Positions 1 to 19,466 of a stretch of DNA of 64,000 nucleotides are shown here, one piece after another. Under the pieces are notes generated by a model that was given only the letters and a program-made list of their open reading frames with translations, was not told where the DNA came from and ran no database searches. The translations under genes and the position numbers were made by a program. The stretch covers positions 416,001 through 480,000 of the forward strand of contig CAVXKA010000003.1 in the NCBI GenBank assembly GCA_963762255.1. The letters run 5' to 3'. The DNA is from Candidatus Eiseniibacteriota bacterium (GTDB lineage: Bacteria; Eisenbacteria; RBG-16-71-46; JABDJR01). Position 1 is the first letter of the stretch. Each line of letters opens with the position of its first letter.

Positions 1-883
1 GCTGATCCGGTCCCGAAACCGATTGCCCAGGATCAACGCCGCATCGCGTAGGCTCGTCTTGCCCTCGCAATGCACCAGAAACCGCCCCCCCGGATACGCT
101 CCTGCGAAAGCGTGGGCATAGGTGAACGCGAGCTCGGTCTTGCCGATGCCGCCCAGACCGTGCACGCCGGTGATGACCCCTGCCCGGTCGTCCTTGAGTC
201 GCTCGCGCAGGTCGAGTAGCTCGTCCAGGCGCCCGGAGAAGCGCCTGTTGTAGGCGGGTACATCGCTTTCGCTCTCGGCCGCAAGATGAACCTGCGTGGC
301 GCGCTCATCGAGGTCGCGGGCCAGTGCGGCCAGAACGCAGCGCAAGTCGTCCTGACGCAACGCCTCCAACCCAGTGCGGTAGAACGGTTGCACGGCATTG
401 AACTGCCGCCGGCGCAGCTGCTTCACCACCGGCGCGGCGGTCTCGATGAACGCCTCGTGCGGTAGCGGCCGCCCGCACAGCTTCGCTACCTCGCGCGCAA
501 CCTCGTGCTCGTCGATCGCGCTGTCGAGCCCCGGTACCTCGACGATGTAGATGGGCGCCGCACCGGCGGAGAGGATGTGCTTAGCGATCTCCAGGTCGAT
601 CCAGGTGCGCCACTCGCGCCGGCACCACTCGCTGGCGAAGTAGTTCGGCGAGAGGAAGGCAACGAACAGCCGCGAATGCGCCAGTCCGTCGTGGATGCGG
701 AGCCGCCAGTCGTCCAGGCCGTGGATGTCGATCCTTGTCGAAGAAGCAGGTCAGCGAGCGTCCACCGGTGAACTTCCGGTGCTCCGCGAGCAGTTCCTCG
801 ACAAAACCGCTGATCCATCCCTCGCGGTTGTCAGCGCGGGCGTAGGAGACGAAGAGATCGTAGCGATCGTGGTCAAGCGGCAT
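1..883 (-). CDS. TIR-NB-ARC (STAND/NLR-like) protein, 5' part; one frameshift near 731; continues beyond the window
   Basis: ATG at 883 with GGAGG RBS. Reads YDLFVSYARAD...CFFDKD, then after a 1-nt shift DIHGLDDW...FVAFLSPNYFASEWCRREW (TIR with catalytic-position Glu), then in frame VPAYNRRFSGRLDEL...GVHGLGGIGKTELAFTYAH (NB-ARC Walker A at ~136-160). Confidence 0.85.
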
Positions 884-974
884 GGGCGACGGCCTCCAAC
901 GTTAACGACCTGCGCTTCTTGGACTACACGCACCGCCCTGGCAAGCGCGTCCACTGGCGTCGCATGTTCACAGG

Positions 975-1847
975 TCACAGGAATGCCAGCAGCGTCGCGA
1001 CCCCTTGACTCTGGAAGTACTGCAGGATCGTCCTGGTGCCCGGACTGTACCCGTCCCATAACAGGATCGCCAGATCCGACTTCACGCAGAACAGAGCGTC
1101 TCGTTCGCTCGGCCCCTTCATGCCCCTTGGAATCTGTTCCAGGGAGGCATCAAGAAACCCGAGCTTGCCTCCCCTGACAAGCTCTCGAAGTTCTGGCGCA
1201 CAGTCAAAACGATGGTAACCGACGGTAGTGACCCGCTGACTCTGCTCGACCAGGAAGCGCGCCGCGGCAATGTCTATGGTTCCAACCGCCCCGACGAGCC
1301 ACTTAGTCGTCTCCGAGAGATACGGTGTCAGAACGCGTTCCACCCTCCGACGCGTGACCACTTCGTCTGCGGTCATCGTGCCGGTCACAGAGATCGTCCG
1401 CTGCTCCGCAGCCTTCACCGACGCCAGTTCTGTCGCGCCCGACCCCTTCAGTGCATAGCGGGAGAGAGTTTGCCGAACGGCTTCAGCCAGTCTCTCCGCA
1501 AGCCGGGCCTCGCTTCCGATCGAGTACTTCAGGACACGGTGGGACTTCAGATCGAAGGGGAGTTCGTCTATGTCTTGCCCGATGAGGATCGTCGGCTTGC
1601 CCAGGGCCATTGCATAGCCTGTCTCCCACATCACGTTCGGGGTGTGGCCGCTGACGTTGGCTATGCAGAACGCGGCTTCATGGAGACCGATGAGGATATC
1701 ATCGGTGATGCGTCCCGCCGACTTCACGTCCTTCAGCCAGTAACACTCGAAGACCGCCCCCGGAACCGCCGAAGTCGCCACCTTCTTGACAACGTCGAAC
1801 ACGGGATCAAAAGCCGTTGCGAAAGGCATGATGACAAAGCACTTCAT
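975..1847 (-). CDS. Nucleoside 2-deoxyribosyltransferase-like (N-glycosidase) domain fused to a C-terminal SLOG (YspA/DprA-like) domain
   Basis: N-term CFVIMPF...CIANVSGHTPNVMWETGYAMALGKPTILI...LPFDL is the NDT/DRHyd-like signature. C-term ISVTGT...GAVGTIDIAA...RDALFCVKSDLAILLWDGYSPGT is a SLOG-type signature. Confidence 0.75.
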   Translation of the reverse strand: MKCFVIMPFATAFDPVFDVVKKVATSAVPGAVFECYWLKDVKSAGRITDDILIGLHEAAFCIANVSGHTPNVMWETGYAMALGKPTILIGQDIDELPFDLKSHRVLKYSIGSEARLAERLAEAVRQTLSRYALKGSGATELASVKAAEQRTISVTGTMTADEVVTRRRVERVLTPYLSETTKWLVGAVGTIDIAAARFLVEQSQRVTTVGYHRFDCAPELRELVRGGKLGFLDASLEQIPRGMKGPSERDALFCVKSDLAILLWDGYSPGTRTILQYFQSQGVATLLAFL

Positions 1848-1978
1848 GTTAGCTCCCGCGAAGAGCCGATTCGGTGGTCGACTACTTCATCAATGCACAC
1901 CGAGGACCCCGCCTGTGATCTTCCCCAGAATAGCCATCCGTGCAGCATCGTTCGTGACCACCTGCGCATGCGCCTCCC

Positions 1979-5313
<3,335 letters not shown>

Positions 5314-5316
5314 GGC

Positions 5317-8228
5317 TTATTCCTCGGTCTCCCCGAACAGTGCCGCCCTGCTCGGCTCTCGGCTTGCCGCCCTCGCGGGCGAGCCGCGCGATCTCCGGCC
5401 AGCTCTGGACGAGGCCGTTGTAGGCGAGCGCCTCGGCCGCGCGCTTCTTGCGCTCGCAGAGGGTGTAGAGGCGGTAGGCCAGCTCGCGGGCGATCTCGGC
5501 CTTGGCGCCGAGCTTGGCGACGAGCTCCGCCGCCGCGCCTTCGCCGCCGCTTCGAGCACGCGGATCAGGTGGTGGACGATCTCCCACGCGGTGAGGCGCG
5601 GGTCGGTCGCCGGGTCCCAGTCGGCGGGCAGCTCGTCGGGCTCGCAGCAGCCGCACCTTGCCGCGGCTTCGATTCGAGGATGCCGGCCTCGACCATGCCG
5701 GCGACGCTCGTGTTCTTGGCCTTGGAGAGCTGTTCGGCCACGCCGTACTCGCCCTCGGCGAAGCCCGACTGCTCGAACCAGGCCAGCGCCCAGCGGCTGT
5801 CGGCGTCGAAGTCGCCCTCCTGCTCGGCCAGCGCCTCGTCGAGGGTCTGGTTGATGAGCGCCAGCGCCTCGCGCACGGTGAGCGGCTTGCCCTCGGCGTC
5901 GAGCACCTTGGCGTAGCGGGTGTAGACCGCCATGCCCGGGCCGATGGCCGCCTGCGCCAGGTCCACCGGCGCGATGTTGCCGCGCTGCAGGTGGGCGAGC
6001 GCCGCGGGCAGCTCGGCCTTGAGCGCGGTGACGAACTCGCGGCGCGTGGCGGTGGGCGCGTCGGCGGCGCGCGGGCGGCAGACGAGGACGATGCTGGAGG
6101 CGAGGGCGTTGGTGTCCGATGCCGCTCATGCGGTCTGCCAGTCTCCGTCCGCATCGGCCAGGTGCCGCTGATGGCGAAGCCGGCGCGGATCACCGCGTCG
6201 AGGAAGGTCTCCCAGCCGGTGCTCGCGGTGCCGTCGTCGCCGTCGCTCTCCGCCTGCTTGAAGGCGTAGTAGATGGTGACCGGGAAGGCCGGGTGCGCCT
6301 GCTCGGCGAGGCGGTGCATCGCCTGCGTCATGCCGTCGAGGAAGAACGCCTCCGCCTTCTCCTTGCTGCCGTGGCGGTAGGGCGTGGCGACCAGCTCCTC
6401 GGCCTTGGGCACGGCGAGCGTGGCGAAGAGGTCGGGGAAGACGGGCCTCAGCGAGCGGCGCAGCCAGACGTAGAAGAAGTCCGACAGGTCGGCGTAGCCG
6501 ATGTTGTCGTAGTAGGGCGGATCGGTGGAGACGACCTTGTCCGCGACTGATCGTCTGGTGCTGCGCATCGGCTTGCTGACGCGATGCCCGGCGACGTGCG
6601 CCGGCAAGCGCTTCGAAGCACCTTCGCGATCCACTCGACATGCTGCCACGAAGTTCCCGCTCGAGCTCTGCAGAACGGATTCGCCTCCGCGAAGTCCCAG
6701 GTCATCGGAATCGCCTGCCGGCCGAAACGTGCTGCGACGATGCTCGTCCTGTCTGGCATCCAACGTGCAGAGCGACGTGTCCGTAGTCGCAGCCTTGCTC
6801 AACGCGCGAACGCCAGATACACCGCCACCGCATCGGCGTAGGCGGTGGCGCCGGTGCCGCCGTCGCGCAGGGGCTTGCCGTCGTCGGGCAGGCCGGCGGC
6901 GAGCGCGTCGCGCTTCACCCGCTCGCGCGCTTCCTGCACCAGGTCGGAGAAGGTCGTCAGCGCCACGAGCTGGCGGGGGGTGAAGAGGTCGCCGCACGTC
7001 GTCATCCCGTAGTGGCTTCACGCCGAGATACTGCGTGCTGCCGGAGATCGTCGACCTCCGGCTTCCACGTCCGGCTTCGCCTTGCGCGCAACCGCCTCCA
7101 TGCTCCGGCGTCGGCGCGAGATAGACCCGCCCGCGCTCGCCCTCGGCGACGATCGCCATCAGCCGCGCGCCCATGCGCCCGGCCTTGCCCTCGGCCTTGA
7201 TGTAGTCGCCCGCGATCGGCGCGCCCGACATCAGGCACCGGAAGTTCGCGCCGCGCGCCAGCTTGGTGCCGCTCTTCGCCGCCTCCGCATCCTTCGGCTT
7301 CCCCACCTTCACCGTGAAGCGGTAGCCGCCGTCCTCGATCACCGGCTCGACGTACGCCTCCTTGCCCGCCTTGGTGGAGAGCATGAAGGTCGAGGCGAGC
7401 GGCACGTCCACCTGCGCGAAGGCCGGGTTCGGGCTCTTCACCGTGCGCGCCCAGAGCCAGGCGATCACGGTGAGCTTCTGGCCGACGTACGGCTTCAGGT
7501 CCGGCCGCTCCTTCGCCATCTCGGCCGTGACCTCGACCTTCGGGTAGAGGTGGCCGATGCGCTTCTCGGCCTCGTCGCGCATCCACTGGCCGTAGTAGCG
7601 CACGTCCTCGGCGAGCCCCTGCGCGCCCTTCCACTCCCGCGCGATGAGCGTCTTGTCCTCGCGCGCCTCGGGGTTCACCGGCGGCTTGCCCGCGAACTTC
7701 GGCGGGATCTCGATCATCGCCTTGTTGATCAGCACCGCCACCGGGTTCAGGTCGCTGGCGTAGCTCTCGAGCCCCAGCCGCTGCGCCTCCAGCGGCAGCG
7801 CCCCGCCGCCGGCGAAGGGGTCGTGGAAGGCGGGCAGCTTGTGCCGGTCGAACAGCTCCTTCGCCCGCGGATGGTCGGCGTTCTCGGCGCAGGCGCGCCG
7901 CCAGCTCTGCCAGATCTCGTCGCGCGCCTGCCTGCAGCACCGTCTCGTTGGTGGTGTTCTCCCACAGCACCAGGTCTTCGATGATGCGGAAGAGCCGCTG
8001 CCGCTCCTTCTCCTGCTTCTTCTCGGTCGGGAAGAGGTCCGGGTGCGCCGACGGGTCGTCCACCATCTGCGCGAAGATCACCGCCCGCGCCGCCGCCAGC
8101 GGCCGCCGCGCCCACCACAGGTGCAGCGTGCTCGGGTGCCCGTGGCGGATCGACTTCTCCCGCGCCGAGGCCTTGTTGATGGCCTCGAGCGGCAGGGCGA
8201 CTTCGATGAGCTTCTTCTTCGGGGTCAC
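5317..8228 (-). CDS. DUF1156-family adenine-specific DNA methyltransferase (frameshifted)
   Basis: [14 protein letters not shown]...[10 protein letters not shown] (DUF1156), DPFAGGG SAM motif near 7800-7825, TDPPYYDNI catalytic motif near 6500-6530; split over ORFs 7002-8228, 4649-7741 and 5565-5966. Confidence 0.9.
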
Positions 8229-9952
8229 GCGTTCTCGTCCCGACGCGGCCGAGCCTGGGTGGCGGCAGTGACGATGCGATCAAGCTTCTCGCCGACCTCG
8301 GGATCCAAATCCTCCACCGCGACGAACCGCGCCAGGGTGTGGTAGTCCGTCTTACGCATGAGGTTTGGCAGTTTCAGCTCTTCGTAGAATCTCTTGAAGA
8401 GCGGATCCAGAAACTCGTCGCTGATCTTCGTGTTCAACCACCACTCGTGTGCTGGGTCGCGAAGCGCGATCGGGGGGACGAGGTCCATGATGGTCCGATC
8501 CATCGTCGCGCGCCAAGATGCTGCGAACAGATCCCCGGCCTGCTCTCGCCCCTGAGCCTCGGCCCAGCTGAGGAGTGTCGCCCGCTGACATAGGTAGTTC
8601 TCGACTTCCCGTCGTCGCCAAGCGTGCTGCTGAAGATTGGGGTCCGCGGGAGGGGGCTGATCGAGGCGGTCGTAGACAGCGATCCCGACCAGTTCTGGCA
8701 TCGCCTCCCGCAGCGCATAGAAGTGATCCTGGGCCTTCTTGGGCTGGTTGGAGACGTAATGGACGAAAGGCCTTTCGAGAATGGCCTTGGCCGAATGCCC
8801 AAGCGTTGCAGCGAAAGCCCGCAAGATGGCCAGATCGGTGGATCCCTCCAGGTAAAGTACCCAACCCGTCTCCTCGGCCTGGACGTAATCCTCGAACCCG
8901 ATGTCCTTCAGGGCCTTGAGCACCTGGCTGCCCCGGTCATCGATGCGATGCGGCTTGCCGACGAACGCAACCACAGTGTCTCGATCCGCCGCTTCGTTGA
9001 GGATGACCTCGGAATGGCTAGCGGCGATGATCTGGCTACCGGTCTCGGCCGCGGTCTCGGTGAGCACTTGGTAGATCTGACGTTGGCGCAGAACCTCGAG
9101 GTGAGCGTCCGGCTCATCCAACAGCAGCACGGCGCCAGGGTTCGCGACCATGTGCGCGAGGAGGAGCAGGGTCTGTTGCTGCCCGCGCCCGCTAGCTGAC
9201 AGGTCGAGCCTCACGCCATCGGCCGTACGGAAGGACATCACGATCTCCCCACGCTCCTTGACGTACTCGGGCCGGTCAATCTGAACGCCAAAAAACGTCT
9301 CCATTCGCCGCGCGATCCCATCCCACGCCGACTCGCCCTCGCTTTGCTGTGCCACCTGCCAGCACAGATTGCGCAGAACTTCGGCTGTCCGGCCCTCACC
9401 AAGCCGCACGTTGATCGCACCCTCGTCGAGGCGCGTCTCGGTGGCTGCGAGACCCGACATGGGGGGTAAGTAGGCCAAGTGCAGCCGGCTCGCCTGCTCC
9501 GGCACCTCCATCCGCCCGCCGCCATCAAGGCGTGGTGGTCGGCAGTAGAACGACTCCTCGTTCGCGTAGTCGAACTCCAGCGCGCAGCGCCAAGACTTGC
9601 CATCGTCAACGCCTTCAACCTGGACTTCGATGAGAACATTCTGTGTCTTGGTCTTGCCCGCGTCGCGGAAGCCCTTGCGCACGTGGAGGCCGCGCCAGAG
9701 GAGGTTCGCCGCCGGCACCGGCACTGCCAGTAGATCCCGGCGATTGATGGTGATCCCAGGGCGTGTCTCGGGGACGTCACCTGAGCCTCGTTTCTCGACC
9801 CAACGCTTGGCTCCGATGTCCCACAGGGCGAGTGCCTGAAGCGCAGAGGTCTTTCCTGAATTGTTGGGCCCCACGAAGACCACGCGGTCAGCTAGTTCGA
9901 TCTCGACCTCGTTGAAGAGCTTGAAGTTCCGAATGATTAGTTTGGTCAACAT
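8225..9952 (-). CDS. OLD/GajA-like ABC ATPase with C-terminal TOPRIM-like domain
   Basis: [15 protein letters not shown] (Walker A), SASGRG signature, [10 protein letters not shown] (Walker B/D-loop), ASHS (H-loop); then [20 protein letters not shown] typical of OLD-type TOPRIM regions. Intact 575 aa. Confidence 0.75.
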
Positions 9953-15251: not shown

Positions 15252-18200
15252 TCACGCTTCTGTTCTAGCCGGGAGACGATCGAGGACTTCTCGGAATCCG
15301 TCCTTCACGATCTCCTCAAAGCCCCGCTTCATGACAATGTCCTTGAGAGCTCCCAGCATGGCCGGAAGGCGTGGGCACATCTCTTCCATCAGGTCCACAA
15401 ACACCCAGAGGTCGGTCGACTTCCTAGTCGGGTCAACATCCTGCAACTCTGCGCGGAACTTCTCAAGCCGCCCTTGCCATACCTTCGTGAGCGCGACAAT
15501 GGCGTGATTGTCATTCAGCAAGGGCGTTGCGTCGTCCATCACGAGTGCTATGACCTTCTCCTGAAACTCCGCCCGGTGGTAGGCACAGCGGCGGAACGCT
15601 TGGAACAACTCGTGCGCCATGCAGAATTCCGAGTGCAGCGACTTCTCACTGATCACTGCTACAATCCGCTTGGCTCTTGCTACTTCTTGCGCGAAATGCT
15701 CAATCGAGTCACCGCCACGCATCCGCTCCTTGTCACGACCGATGACGCGACCACTCTTCTCCACAGCGGCACAAAGGCGGTCGACAATCTCCTCGCGCTG
15801 ACGACCAGACGCACTCGAATCCTCGCCCCAGGCGTAGGACACATATATTTCGGGTGCTGTCGTTCGGGCGACCGGCGCTGGGGGAAGATCACTGACCGTG
15901 ATCAGGCCGGGTTGAAATGGTAGGACAGGCGCAGCGAATGGAAATCGACGAACGTCTTGCTTGAGCCCAGTCAGGGAAGCGGGGATGATTGGGAAGTGGA
16001 AACACAGCCGGCCGTCTTCACGGCTGGTTTCTTGTTGGTCCCATAGCCGTAGGAGATAGGTCTCACTAAGTTCCTGCCGTTCATCTGCGGGCCGGCCCAG
16101 ATACGCCGCCAAGGCATCGCAGGCTTCAGAGCGGGCGCCGCGTCGCAGGTGGATGAAGGCCGCCAGCCAACCGCTAGTCTCGCCCCTGCCGAAGGCGGCG
16201 TGTGGGAACTCGGATAGAGCGCGATGAGCGCCCTCGGAATCGCGACTTGCGAGCCGGGAGAGTGCTTCTTGCGCTGCCAGCGCGAAATAGCGGGGAAATT
16301 CCACACGAGCGGACTTGGCGAGCTCTGCGGCACCGGCCCAATCGCCACGGTCCTGGCACTCCAGTACTCTTCCCAAGGTCACTTGGGAACGCGAAAGCGC
16401 AGCAGGACCAGACTCGGCAAGAAGGTTTGCCAACTGGGTGCTTTCTCCTGCGCCAACACAGAGCAATAGAGCGCCCTCGACTACCTGCTGCCTCCCAAAC
16501 TGCTCAGGAATTCGCTTCAGCCCTTCGATCTGAACGGCGATGGCTTCACTTGGTTTGCCCGCACGGCAGAAGACCTCACCCAAGCTCTGGTAGAGCGAGA
16601 AAAGGTTCTTGTCCGCCGGAATGACCCTCAAGCCTTCCTTGAGCAGCACCACCGCCTCGTCCGTCTTGCCCGCACGCCCCAGTATCTCCGCGCAACTCTG
16701 GTAGAGCGAGGAAAGGCTCGTCATCCCCGGAACCTTGATGCCTTCCTTGAGCAGCGCCACCGCCTCGTCCGTCTTCCCCGCGCGCCCCAGCATCTCCGCG
16801 CAACTCTGGTAGAGCGAGAACAGGTTCTTGCCCGCCGGAATGACCCTCAAGCCTTCCTTGAGCAGCACCACCGCCTCGTCCGTCTTGCCCGCGCGCCCCA
16901 GTATCTCCGCGCAACTCTGGTAGAGCGAGGAATGGCTCGTCATCCCCGGAACCTCGATGCCTTCCTTGAGCAGCGCCACCGCCTCGTCCGTCTTGCCCGC
17001 ACGCCCCAGCATCTCCGCGCAACTCTGGTAGAGCGAGAAAAGGCTCGTCATCCCCGGAACCTTGATGCCCTCCTTGAGCAGCACCACCGCCTCGTCCGTC
17101 TTGCCCTCCAGCCCCAGCATCTCCGCGCAACTCTGGTAGAGCGAGAACAGGTTCTTGCCCGCCGGAATGACCCTCAAGCCTTCCTTGAGCAGCGCCACCG
17201 CCTCGTCCGTCTTGCCCGCACGCCCCAGCATCTCCGCGCAACTCTGGTAGAGCGAGGAAAGGCTCGTCATCCCCGGAACCTTGATGCCCTCCTTGAGCAG
17301 CACCACCGCCTCGTCCGTCTTGCCCTCCAGCCCCAGCATCTCCGCGCAACTCTGGTAGAGCGAGAACAGGTTCTTGTCCGCCGGAATGACCCTCAAGCCT
17401 TCCTTGAGCAGCACCACCGCCTCGTCCATCTTGCCCGCGCGCCCCAGCATCTCCGCACAACTCTGGTAGAGCGAGAATAGGTTCTTGTCCGCCGGGATGA
17501 CCCTCAAGCCTTCCTTGAGCAGCACCACCGCCTCGTCCGTCTTGCCCGCGCGCCCCAGCATCTCCGCGCAACTCTGGTAGAGCGAGAAAAGGCTCGTCAT
17601 CCCCGGAACCTTGATGCCCTCCTTGAGCAGCACCACCGCCTCGTCCGTCTTGCCCTCCAGCCCCAGCATCTCCGCGCAACTCTGGTAGAGCGAGAACAGG
17701 TTCTTGTCCGCCGGAATGACCCTCAAGCCTTCCTTGAGCAGCACCACCGCCTCGCCCGTCTTGCCCGCACGCCCCAGCATCTCCGCGCAACTCTGGTAGA
17801 GCGAGAAAAGGTTCTTGTTCGCCGGGATGACCCTCAAGCCTTCCTTGAGCAGCACCACCGCCTCGTCCGTCTTGCCCGCTCCAGAAAGCAACTCAGCTCC
17901 GAGACGGTAAAGCGGCGCTGCATCGGTGCGATGATGTCTCGTTCGCAACGCGTTCCGAATTGTCCGCATTGCCGCATCTACGCCCACCGCCTGGTGCTGC
18001 AGCTTCACCAGCAGCGTCCAGCTGACTTCCGGCCCCCCCCCACTTGCCGCACGCTCTGCGTGAATGATCGCGCGCTCAATATCTCCGACTCGGCCGCGTG
18101 TCTGCAGACATCGTGCGAGATGGTACTCGAGTCCCTTCGCTCCACCGCCTTCCAGTAGGACGGAGAGAACACCGATTCGCTCGTCCAATTCCTCAGGATG

Positions 18201-19466
18201 CCTAGGGACAGGAGAGACAGCCCTGATTTCGTGCTTTAGGTGGTCGGTGAAACGATGCCCGATCTCGCGGATCTCGGCCTCACGCCCGGCTTGGACCAAG
18301 TGATAACGGACTTCCGCGAACGATTCCCCTAGCGTAGCTTGACTGCCAACAATGTGCTTCGCCTTGAAATGGCGCAGATGGTAATCGGCCGCCCCCGAAT
18401 GAGCCTGCTTGTATTCCGCAGGCTCCTCCTTCAGGTGACTGAGGGAGATTTCCCGAACGATCGGATTCAGGGATAGCACACCACTTCGGAAGTTGATGAG
18501 GTAGCGAGTGATCAGAATCGTCCGCAGTCGCGCCGCCTCGTCTTTGCTGCCGCAAGTCCTTTCAAGCGCCTCGCGCTTGAAACTTCGCCGGTGGACCGCG
18601 AGACGCCAGAGTTTCTTCTGGTGAGCCATATCCAGGTGCTTCAGTGTCCGCTCCAACAAGTCGCGCTCAAGAGTATCGAGAAACTCCCGTGACACTACCC
18701 GGTCTTTGGTTTCCCAGAGGCCTGGTTTGCTGCCCATAATCTCGTCCAGAGAATCGTAGGCAAGCGCGCCGACCAATGCCTCGATTGCCCTCGGGTTGTA
18801 GTCCAATGCCTTTACCAAGTCCTGTTTGCGCTCCGGCAGCTCATCCAACACCACATCGGAGTCCTCGAGTTTGCTCTCGAGTGCTTCGATTGCTTCCTCC
18901 GGCTCGAGCTTTGTCAGAGTCCGTTTCGGAATCCATTCTGACCATCTTGCATTCTCCACGAGACGGTCACTGAGCAGTAGTAGGCGACCTGGTAAGTTCT
19001 GGCGATTGCGGAGGAAGGAAACAACGTTGTTCAGCTCAGGCAAGGGGCTCCCTGAGTCTGGCATGAAGAACCTCTGGGCTTCATCCAAGATGATGACGAC
19101 CGGGCGGCTAAGCGCCTCCTCCAGTGCAAAGGCAAGGTTCGGACTCGTCTCTTCGAAGAGCACACGTTCCATCTCGGGTAGTCCTTGACGGCTTAGGCTT
19201 GCTGATAACTCCATCAAGCCCTCAATCACCGATGGCGTCGGCCGGTCGGAGATCTCATTGATGACGGTATGCTCCCAGCATTCCCTCTTCTGTGCCGCGT
19301 CGCGCAGGTCTCGAGCAAGATCAGTCTTCCCCACACCTGAGAAACCCTGGAGAAAACACACGGGCGGCCCGGTCGTGAGCCACACGTTCACCAACCAGTC
19401 GAGATTCTCGGCGCGATTACGACCGATGTACTTCTTCAGCATGAAAGTCACACCCATCTGGATCAT
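15252..19466 (-). CDS. STAND-like NTPase - TPR repeat - TIR protein (NLR-like, C-terminal TIR)
   Basis: GFSGVGKT Walker A, VIILDE Walker B, YNPRAI (GxP-like position), ~12 TPR-like repeats, C-term IYVSYAW...VAVISEKSLHSEFCMAHEL TIR. Intact 1404 aa; start may be 19442. Confidence 0.85.
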   Translation of the reverse strand: MIQMGVTFMLKKYIGRNRAENLDWLVNVWLTTGPPVCFLQGFSGVGKTDLARDLRDAAQKRECWEHTVINEISDRPTPSVIEGLMELSASLSRQGLPEMERVLFEETSPNLAFALEEALSRPVVIILDEAQRFFMPDSGSPLPELNNVVSFLRNRQNLPGRLLLLSDRLVENARWSEWIPKRTLTKLEPEEAIEALESKLEDSDVVLDELPERKQDLVKALDYNPRAIEALVGALAYDSLDEIMGSKPGLWETKDRVVSREFLDTLERDLLERTLKHLDMAHQKKLWRLAVHRRSFKREALERTCGSKDEAARLRTILITRYLINFRSGVLSLNPIVREISLSHLKEEPAEYKQAHSGAADYHLRHFKAKHIVGSQATLGESFAEVRYHLVQAGREAEIREIGHRFTDHLKHEIRAVSPVPRHPEELDERIGVLSVLLEGGGAKGLEYHLARCLQTRGRVGDIERAIIHAERAASGGGPEVSWTLLVKLQHQAVGVDAAMRTIRNALRTRHHRTDAAPLYRLGAELLSGAGKTDEAVVLLKEGLRVIPANKNLFSLYQSCAEMLGRAGKTGEAVVLLKEGLRVIPADKNLFSLYQSCAEMLGLEGKTDEAVVLLKEGIKVPGMTSLFSLYQSCAEMLGRAGKTDEAVVLLKEGLRVIPADKNLFSLYQSCAEMLGRAGKMDEAVVLLKEGLRVIPADKNLFSLYQSCAEMLGLEGKTDEAVVLLKEGIKVPGMTSLSSLYQSCAEMLGRAGKTDEAVALLKEGLRVIPAGKNLFSLYQSCAEMLGLEGKTDEAVVLLKEGIKVPGMTSLFSLYQSCAEMLGRAGKTDEAVALLKEGIEVPGMTSHSSLYQSCAEILGRAGKTDEAVVLLKEGLRVIPAGKNLFSLYQSCAEMLGRAGKTDEAVALLKEGIKVPGMTSLSSLYQSCAEILGRAGKTDEAVVLLKEGLRVIPADKNLFSLYQSLGEVFCRAGKPSEAIAVQIEGLKRIPEQFGRQQVVEGALLLCVGAGESTQLANLLAESGPAALSRSQVTLGRVLECQDRGDWAGAAELAKSARVEFPRYFALAAQEALSRLASRDSEGAHRALSEFPHAAFGRGETSGWLAAFIHLRRGARSEACDALAAYLGRPADERQELSETYLLRLWDQQETSREDGRLCFHFPIIPASLTGLKQDVRRFPFAAPVLPFQPGLITVSDLPPAPVARTTAPEIYVSYAWGEDSSASGRQREEIVDRLCAAVEKSGRVIGRDKERMRGGDSIEHFAQEVARAKRIVAVISEKSLHSEFCMAHELFQAFRRCAYHRAEFQEKVIALVMDDATPLLNDNHAIVALTKVWQGRLEKFRAELQDVDPTRKSTDLWVFVDLMEEMCPRLPAMLGALKDIVMKRGFEEIVKDGFREVLDRLPARTEA
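16585..17879 (-). repeat. Intragenic tandem array of 108/111-bp units (36/37-aa TPR-like repeats)
   Basis: Eleven full units plus partial flanks of xxSLYQSCAExLGxxGKxDEAVxLLKEG, each followed by LRVIPAxKN or IxVPGMTS; near-identical at DNA level. Confidence 0.95.

Follow-up and report, generated by a model that had tools for sequence, protein, structure and literature searches.

What does a 290-amino-acid (aa) protein do in which a nucleotide N-glycosidase-type domain appears to be joined to a SLOG-like domain, and is it switched on by the TIR gene that lies next to it? The question arises at one end of the window, as we call the whole stretch of 64,000 nucleotides analysed here (G000:C3:416001-480000), which comes from G000, the 4.1-Mb genome in three contigs of a Candidatus Eiseniibacteriota bacterium. 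An original prediction, made from the letters of this sequence, had proposed that an NLR-like protein senses infection, that its TIR domain makes a second messenger, and that this messenger activates an NDT-type enzyme through the attached SLOG domain. We find that the gene, here called NDT-SLOG, is intact, and that its linkage to TIR genes is real and repeated, fusions included, yet facultative. On our analysis, it is about an even bet that NDT-SLOG is a horizontally acquired conflict-system effector, which would work like ThsA of type I Thoeris and be switched on by a TIR-made signal.

An intact gene of a uniform protein family

The gene and its two predicted domains are laid out as follows.

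975..1847, minus strand: NDT-SLOG gene, intact, 290 aa (list of open reading frames, homologues, guanine-cytosine content)
1443..1847, minus strand: NDT/DrHyd-like N-glycosidase domain, about aa 1-135, with Glu75 in NVMWETGYA (PF05014, DNPH1/Rcl alignment, PADLOC, conservation)
978..1409, minus strand: SLOG-like (YAcAr-like) domain, aa 147-290, with motifs TG(S/T)M, WxxGxxGxxD, RD and WDGxSxGT (hhalign against YAcAr)

The open reading frame (ORF) at 975-1847 (-) contains no internal stop and ends with its own stop codon at 975-977. In a protein collection clustered at 90% identity it has 413 homologues at E ≤ 1e-3, nearly all of them 288-292 aa long, and identity ranges from 47 to 77% across phyla among the 120 homologues listed. 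According to source names and record titles, the homologues stem from metagenome-assembled genomes of Planctomycetota, Chloroflexota, TA06, Acidobacteriota, Hydrogenedentota, Bacteroidota and Armatimonadota; some sources name them 'nucleoside 2-deoxyribosyltransferase'. PADLOC v2 holds no full-length model that covers the 290-aa protein. A promoter/terminator scan of window positions 1-2300 detected no candidate promoter; it gave a single terminator-like site, at 1161-1184 inside the NDT-SLOG gene, a count equal to that obtained with shuffled sequence.

The N-terminal half resembles NDT/DNPH1 enzymes

Both halves of the protein had been assigned in the original prediction, the first as an NDT-like domain that retains the Glu of NVMWETGYA. 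This assignment held: by a weak but consistent match, the N-terminal half is an NDT/DNPH1-like domain with its putative catalytic Glu kept. Specifically, PF05014 (Nuc_deoxyrib_tr) matched residues 45-96 of the window protein with E 7.1e-5 and 23.4 bits, which is below the 28.8-bit cut-off, and it matched all 41 aligned family members at E ≤ 10, with a best E of 5.5e-7. In a profile search of the PDB, the family profile recovered the DNPH1/Rcl structures 2klh and 4fyh (E 0.014-0.044). The invariant NVMWETGYAMALGKP of the family was aligned onto GVGYELGRAVALGKP of DNPH1/Rcl, and WETGYA of NDT-SLOG corresponds to YELGRA of these structures, with the xxE.G strand-loop Glu motif present. All 41 aligned sequences have E75; in the NDT family, the motif Glu is the catalytic nucleophile. 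The effector of Retron-Eco1 was not recovered by the family profile in the PDB search at E ≤ 10. The top PADLOC match of the N-domain was PDLC00733 (4.3e-11), the effector part of the CBASS 'Effector, TIR' model, which leads us to group the domain with the signal-activated N-glycosidases of the TIR/NDT assemblage.

The C-terminal half resembles the YAcAr branch of the SLOG superfamily

The second half had been predicted to be SLOG-like, and profile-profile comparison bears this out. By hmmscan, residues 147-290 gave no Pfam match in any of the 41 members, SLOG families and PF10686 included, and an HMM-to-sequence comparison with PDB sequences gave chance-level matches only, e.g. RACK1 and an aminotransferase. 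For hhalign, a 17-sequence alignment of the C-domain served as query, and 7, then 122 PF10686 (YAcAr/DUF2493) proteins served as templates. The C-domain matched the 7 proteins with a probability of 96.4% (E 1.2e-9) and the 122 proteins with 95.9-96.0%. Thirty column-shuffled templates per run yielded a best score of 17.1 and probabilities of ≤ 1.4%; the reversed template yielded 0.1%, and the N-domain aligned with YAcAr as a negative control 0.4-0.7%. As a positive control, DprA and YAcAr, two accepted SLOG families, matched each other at 87-89%.

Stand-alone YAcAr proteins (DUF2493, PF10686) are thus the best profile-profile match of the C-domain, and a C-terminal R[ND]...WDGxSxGT core is common to both. 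Unlike YAcAr, the C-domain contains an extra strand-helix insert, and in its first, N-terminal half the register of the alignment is ambiguous. Moreover, YAcAr proteins are single-domain proteins of about 115 aa, unlike the two-domain, 290-aa NDT-SLOG. A search for PF10686 across 121 genomes of the phylum gave matches in three genomes only. From these alignments, we conclude that the C-domain is a predicted member of the SLOG superfamily nearest to YAcAr, and the NDT-SLOG family would define an unannotated SLOG clade, matched by no Pfam model.

Both modules recur in other proteins. A search of representative proteins returned 10,719 at E ≤ 1e-3, and architectures were taken from the 150 matches listed. 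Among these, the C-domain stands behind another domain in nine, namely Pkinase in six, TIR_2 in two and, as a weak sub-cut-off match of 16 bits, CHAT in one. Reuse behind TIR, NDT and kinase domains is the behaviour expected of a ligand-sensing regulatory domain. TIR-NDT-SLOG fusions are represented by P0077 (414 aa, N-terminal TIR) and by locus L006, and full-length NDT-SLOG with a weak vWA-like extension by P0121 and L010. The N-domain without the C-domain was found with GAF, HTH, AAA and other partners among the matches listed. The kinases constitute a Ser/Thr kinase family with the SLOG-like domain at the C-terminus (P0203, P0215, P0222, P0259, P0260 and P0261).

NDT-SLOG is repeatedly linked to TIR genes

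To the extent that homologues were expected to be linked to TIR genes, the neighbourhood survey agreed in part. We collected 13 loci from reference genomes and 57 from metagenomes. Local hidden Markov models (HMMs) identified the full-length gene in 41 loci, which form 35 clusters at 90% identity, window included, and the 25 clusters with at least 3 kb of flank were taken as informative. In 8 of these 25, a TIR gene is the neighbour of NDT-SLOG or is fused to it: the window, the L005 group, L006, L059, L063, L065, L069 and L072. L070 is an additional weak case, seen with the local HMM only (2.6e-5). TIR_2 is also the commonest Pfam family among neighbours, accounting for 7 of 108 ORFs (those nearest to the gene in the 34 clusters other than the window, at most two per side, within 3 kb), followed by TPR_10 with three, and rve, DUF4062 and RyR with two each. 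As to background, 112 TIR_2 matches were counted in the ~74 Mb of the 11 reference genomes that carry a full-length homologue; about 0.02-0.03 are expected per 16-kb locus, and TIR_2 was observed in 2 of the 11 reference loci. In the L005 genome, the sole TIR_2 match in 5.4 Mb sits directly upstream of NDT-SLOG. Coordinate coincidences of TIR_2 with the loci L007-L010, L012 and L015 were rejected by open-frame length.

At least four distinct architectures occur among the partner TIR proteins. One is a protein of 850-870 aa with a C-terminal TIR, encoded directly upstream (L005/L061/L062 and L063; L059 has a 636-aa form). Others are proteins with an N-terminal TIR (L065 and L072), the fused TIR of L006, and TIR-NB-ARC proteins (the window and L069). 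Neither a sequence relative in the PDB nor a PADLOC match was obtained for the 850-aa X-TIR protein of L005. No match to the NLR gene of the window was found by tblastn in the 13 reference-genome loci. At L069, an NDT-SLOG that is 47% identical to that of the window lies beside a TIR-NB-ARC that is 67-72% identical; two distant effector lineages thus share one type of receptor as partner. At L069 5076-9076, a TIR-only copy that breaks off ahead of the P-loop comes first, then NDT-SLOG and another NDT-domain protein (363 aa, PDLC00733 at 3.5e-11), and finally a TIR-NB-ARC that runs off the contig end.

The adjacent TIR-NB-ARC-TPR gene carries a frameshift in this assembly

The co-oriented TIR-NB-ARC gene that had been predicted 91 bp downstream of NDT-SLOG is confirmed by its coordinates and by its TIR_2 and NB-ARC matches, as is, for this assembly, the frameshift within it.

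884..974, minus strand: intergenic spacer of 91 bp, NDT-SLOG gene to TIR-NB-ARC gene (ORF coordinates)
734..883, minus strand: TIR domain, opening 50 codons (MPLDH...CFFDK), read from the ATG at 883 (67% identical to the homologue in L069)
730..733, minus strand: frameshift, 4 bases in place of the single codon of intact homologues (sequence, L069 homologues)
1..729, minus strand: remainder of the TIR (with SEWCRRE), then the linker and the beginning of NB-ARC with P-loop GLGGIGKT (Pfam, ORF L002 10018-12429)

The scan of window positions 1-2300 found no terminator-like site within the 884-974 spacer. From the ATG at 883, on the same strand as NDT-SLOG, the TIR ORF begins MPLDHDRYDLFVSYARADN... 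and leaves the frame after 50 codons. The post-frameshift frame starts at about 729 (IDIHGLDDW...SEWCRREW...) and extends past the start of the window as far as G000:C3:414018, covering NB-ARC and kinesin-light-chain-like TPR repeats. With Pfam, TIR_2 matched the post-frameshift part (1.9e-10, 41.7 bits), NB-ARC scored 25.6 bits against a cut-off of 23.5, DUF7779 gave a weak match, and a long TPR_10/TPR_12 array (2.5e-58) was found on the continuation outside the window; this TPR part resembles kinesin-light-chain TPR structures in the PDB. The Glu of SEWCRRE, said at the outset to be kept at the catalytic position, aligned with Glu in five of five other TIR domains. In all its details of sequence, the original observation thus proved right.

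Two homologues at L069, 67-72% identical to the window TIR-NB-ARC, read an unbroken FFDK[H/N]DI[G/H] across the frameshift site. One sequencing run, from a soil metagenome, was listed (word share 0.06), and none with RNA; the contigs of this run cover 342-492 and another 35 bases but miss the frameshift site. The TIR/NDT-SLOG pair may be inactive here, or the frameshift may be an assembly error. Further breaks are found on the other side of NDT-SLOG. Window 2188-8228 (-) contains a match to the DUF499 anti-phage ATPase (NF042962, 4.4e-31, 108 of the required 1200 bits) and what we take, from its N-terminal motif alone, to be a DUF1156-type methylase look-alike. The DUF499 and methylase-like genes are each split over several overlapping frames in a stretch of 70-75% GC, which suggests multiple frameshifts in the underlying sequence; these breaks may reflect decay or an indel-prone assembly, and they may bear on the TIR frameshift too. 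Beside the broken genes, window 8225-9952 (-) encodes an intact 575-aa ABC/AAA-type ATPase with an N-terminus like those of MADS3, PtuA and RecF (2.7e-9).

Horizontal transfer and genomic surroundings

Among 206 genomes of the phylum, G000 itself is the only one with a full-length NDT-SLOG. The gene is absent from the other seven genomes of the host family, in which the single genome of the same genus is 75% complete. Its GC content is 0.59-0.61, compared with 0.67-0.75 in the flanks. A scan of 185,579 species genomes found full-length NDT-SLOG at 11 loci, and the titles of these 11 genomes indicate at least seven phyla. Given its rarity in the phylum, its low GC and its spread over at least seven phyla, the gene is by all sequence indications foreign to the host lineage and horizontally acquired.

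Beyond the NLR gene, and co-oriented with it, follow a sigma54 AAA-HTH regulator, two ORFs without Pfam match, a ThiF/E1-like protein, an AAA-RyR protein and a TIR protein. The regulator (L002 8893-9942, which equals G000:C3:412893-413942, just outside the window) has Sigma54-interaction AAA and HTH_8 domains and matches the PADLOC model RtcR_PspF2 CARF_AAA_HTH at 7.9e-85, without a CARF domain. Homologues lie near NDT-SLOG at L065 (44% identity, adjacent) and L050 (34%, 4.7 kb off); the N-termini of these two were considered as relatives of the C-domain, YAcAr, the N-domain or DprA, and rejected at 0.1-0.3%. The ThiF/E1-like protein (5.8e-15) and, upstream of it, the two ORFs without Pfam match (260 and 279 aa) occupy L002 6291-8493, beyond the window, between the regulator and the AAA-RyR gene. 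Next come a 978-aa AAA-RyR protein and an 842-aa TIR protein (L002 3303-6239 and 761-3286, both outside the window). At L002 1-1005, also outside the window, several copies of the C-terminal ~100 aa of the 842-aa protein, 65-88% identical, occur in ORF fragments downstream, which suggests a repeated or duplicated segment.

AAA-RyR is likewise found directly upstream of NDT-SLOG in L068; L014 has AAA-RyR and two TIR genes after an NDT-only gene, and L063 has a RyR protein and a TIR downstream of NDT-SLOG. RyR-AAA/TIR is possibly a conserved module. DUF4062 proteins occur near NDT-SLOG in L005 and L065; DUF4062 is described as a TIR-like NADase in the accessible part of a report (10.64898/2026.05.01.722283). 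L060 2-1543 encodes an adenylate/guanylate cyclase domain protein (2.8e-8) just upstream of NDT-SLOG, a possible alternative signal generator. Within the window, a 1404-aa ORF at 15252-19466 (-) with TIR_2 at 15486-15848 (7.6e-9) is a third TIR gene within ~25 kb.

A proposed TIR-activated effector and its alternatives

In the mechanism that we infer, a TIR-domain protein would sense infection and convert NAD+ to an ADP-ribose-derived signal. The YAcAr-like SLOG module would bind this signal, most likely a small nucleotide ligand, and in the bound state would switch on the N-glycosidase; the latter would then destroy NAD(P)+ or another nucleotide, so that phage replication stops. The candidate signal generator here would be the adjacent TIR-NB-ARC-TPR (STAND/NLR-like) protein. 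The two-domain build, this neighbour and the repeated linkage to TIR genes speak for the chain from TIR through SLOG to NDT that had been proposed at first.

Several findings weigh against it. The TIR of the neighbouring gene is frameshifted at 730-733 in this assembly. The confident core shared by the C-domain and YAcAr comprises the last ~45 columns only (R[DN]-helix-strand-WDGxSxGT-helix-strand), and hhalign of the C-domain with DprA was not significant (0.4%), with a sensible-looking register. PF18185 (STALD), a Pfam family whose name refers to Sir2/TIR-associated SLOG domains and to which the SLOG of ThsA presumably belongs, matched none of six gene-carrying genomes (G000 and five others; six-frame, E ≤ 0.01 or 0.001); control genomes also gave none, so that this search was never seen working on a true member. 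With STALD searches empty everywhere, there was no ThsA SLOG alignment for comparison. As judged from its profile, we conclude that the C-domain is probably not a STALD member.

The linkage itself is also facultative. No TIR is present in the available flank of 17 of the 25 informative clusters. The window belongs to a clade of eight (100/100 support; L050, L003, L056, L058, L055, L004 and L054 are the others) in which none of the other seven has a TIR neighbour; the flank reaches 3 kb or more in five of them. A maximum-likelihood tree requires six changes of the TIR label, against a mean of 5.9 for shuffled labels, so that the label is no more clustered than after shuffling; the association would therefore have arisen repeatedly, and chance co-location of genes within defence islands is compatible with the scatter as well. 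TIR_2 is missing altogether from the L003 genome (2.9 Mb, of unstated completeness), and many neighbours are housekeeping genes, e.g. for a CLC channel, ThuA, a GlcNAc 2-epimerase and a methyltransferase. The window lies in a TIR-rich island, where ~25 kb hold 3 of the 11 TIR_2 matches in the genome, which raises the chance of a TIR being adjacent, and the adjacency here could be secondary. Finally, the combination is less unprecedented than first claimed: the sensor class and the enzyme class are each already present in Thoeris, as the accessible parts of the literature describe it.

It is possible, though we lean against it, that NDT-SLOG is instead a self-contained single-gene defence or stress protein, whose SLOG domain would sense a non-TIR nucleotide (from phage, from stress or, e.g. 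from a cyclase), the TIR genes nearby reflecting island clustering. The TIR-less majority of informative loci, the five informative relatives in the window clade, the gene-carrying genome without TIR_2 and the housekeeping neighbours all suit this explanation, as do the uniform 290-aa stand-alone architecture, the cyclase-domain protein upstream at L060 in place of a TIR, and the recurrence of DUF4062 and RyR-AAA proteins nearby. However, TIR_2 is still the top neighbour family, with no other defence family close; TIR-SLOG and TIR-NDT-SLOG fusions occur; the only TIR of a 5.4-Mb genome lies directly upstream of the gene; and the same type of TIR-NB-ARC stands beside two distant NDT-SLOG lineages. 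Collectively, the data agree with a receiver module that has a TIR as a frequent, though not constant, companion, and somewhat less well with a self-contained, co-locating protein.

We consider it improbable that NDT-SLOG is a signal-processing enzyme, in which SLOG and NDT would recognize ADP-ribose derivatives made by TIRs and cut their N-glycosidic bond, so that it would act as off-switch, threshold setter or maker of a second signal. NDT/DNPH1 enzymes cleave N-glycosidic bonds, the N-domain was aligned with DNPH1/Rcl, and the TIR association fits this role as well as it fits an effector. Aravind's group has proposed, in the accessible part of their article, that SLOG domains act on the 1'-ribosyl N-glycosidic bonds of molecules like cyclic ADP-ribose (cADPR) (PMC9503650). 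In contrast, the sister architectures place the C-domain behind typical output domains, kinase and TIR, and TIR-less loci would leave nothing to process. Furthermore, in the catalytic motif of LOG enzymes an acidic residue follows GT, and the C-domain has none there. An ordinary enzyme of nucleotide metabolism with no conflict role (nucleoside/nucleotide salvage or LOG-like base release) is very improbable: the 'deoxyribosyltransferase' name used by some sources, the high conservation across phyla and the housekeeping neighbours at several loci would suit it, but a full-length gene in a single one of the phylum's genomes and at so few loci of the species-wide scan, scattered over at least seven phyla and low in GC here, with TIR, DUF4062 and RyR-AAA neighbours and fusions, does not.

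Returning to NDT-SLOG as a TIR-activated effector, a more specific version of this reading is rather doubtful, though worth stating. The TIR-NB-ARC-TPR protein would be a signal generator rather than a terminal NADase, and its product would activate NDT-SLOG as a separate, promiscuous receiver that X-TIRs, fused TIRs and possibly cyclases use as well. If true, TIR-STAND acting on NDT-SLOG would parallel, in a prokaryote, the way in which plant TNL receptors signal to downstream executors, and TIR-STAND (NLR-like) proteins would be tied to second-messenger signalling in bacteria, as in plants. Such a pair would have been missed by the Thoeris survey because, according to the part of it available, TIRs of Avs/STAND proteins were removed (10.64898/2025.12.03.692087).

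If NDT-SLOG receives a TIR signal, a compact and widely transferred effector would be added to the Thoeris repertoire, one that joins the sensor type of types I and III to the enzyme type of type VIII and Retron-Eco1. If it is autonomous, it would be a new single-gene candidate defence protein. Either way, a SLOG clade reused behind kinase, TIR and NDT offers a handle on the ligand that such modules read.

Comparison with known systems

Thoeris comprises types I-XI with 29 putative effector types in total, as stated in the accessible part of the survey that excluded the TIRs of Avs/STAND proteins (10.64898/2025.12.03.692087). In type I, the effector is a SIR2-SLOG protein whose SLOG binds 3'cADPR (10.64898/2025.12.03.692087), as the original prediction had assumed in outline. 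NDT-SLOG shares with the type I pair ThsA/ThsB an enzymatic, NAD- or nucleotide-destroying domain fused to SLOG, with TIR genes as preferred neighbours, and with ThsA the N-terminal position of the effector domain and the proposed logic by which a TIR signal acts on SLOG and turns the effector on. Unlike in ThsA, however, the enzyme domain is NDT-like rather than SIR2, the protein is much shorter, and the SLOG module is YAcAr-like, without a STALD match. In contrast to ThsB, which is small, the TIR partners of NDT-SLOG are large multidomain proteins (the 850-aa X-TIR and TIR-NB-ARC-TPR), and, unlike in type I Thoeris, most NDT-SLOG loci lack a TIR neighbour.

On the enzymatic side, type VIII is the closest relative described. 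Its effector ThsI combines a 'CMP hydrolase', related to NDT/DNPH1, with TPR and is activated by canonical cADPR; the 'CMP hydrolase' is cited there alongside work on DNPH1 and on CMP N-glycosidase (10.64898/2025.12.03.692087, accessible part). Compared by this description of ThsI only, both proteins have an NDT/DNPH1-related nucleotide N-glycosidase-type domain beside a TIR gene, whereas TPR is the presumed sensor of ThsI and NDT-SLOG carries a SLOG-like domain. No TPR match was obtained with Pfam in the 290-aa protein or in any of the 41 aligned relatives (41/41), unlike in ThsI. Type III Thoeris is described as several TIRs with a SLOG-containing effector and unknown signalling (10.64898/2025.12.03.692087, citing van den Berg et al. 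2024). The likeness to NDT-SLOG extends to L063, L069 and L014, which also have two TIR genes; by this citing description, which is the basis of the comparison, the type III effector could be the NDT-SLOG family itself.

Among other systems, the N-glycosidase of Retron-Eco1 hydrolyses NAD(P)+ (PMC12673091, accessible part), in line with the precedent originally invoked. Like NDT-SLOG, this protein and the TIR-like effectors of CBASS and Pycsar have NDT- or TIR-like N-glycosidase domains, which destroy NAD(P)+ in phage defence (PMC12673091); theirs are regulated by a filament of reverse transcriptase and msDNA or by a cyclic-nucleotide sensor, not by SLOG. Aravind's group groups TIR, DrHyd (NDT) and SLOG as one recurring Rossmannoid class in such systems, in the accessible parts of two articles (PMC9503650, PMC7159879).

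The original prediction knew of no described system with this combination, and this stands in part. We found no description of an NDT-SLOG or DrHyd-SLOG effector in the literature searched, although one may be listed in Table S1/Figure 1C of 10.64898/2025.12.03.692087, in Burroughs et al. 2015 (PMC4678834) or in van den Berg et al. 2024; on the other hand, SLOG effectors (types I and III) and an NDT-like effector (type VIII) of Thoeris are known from the accessible text of the survey. NDT-SLOG is probably a new variant within Thoeris-type antiviral signalling.

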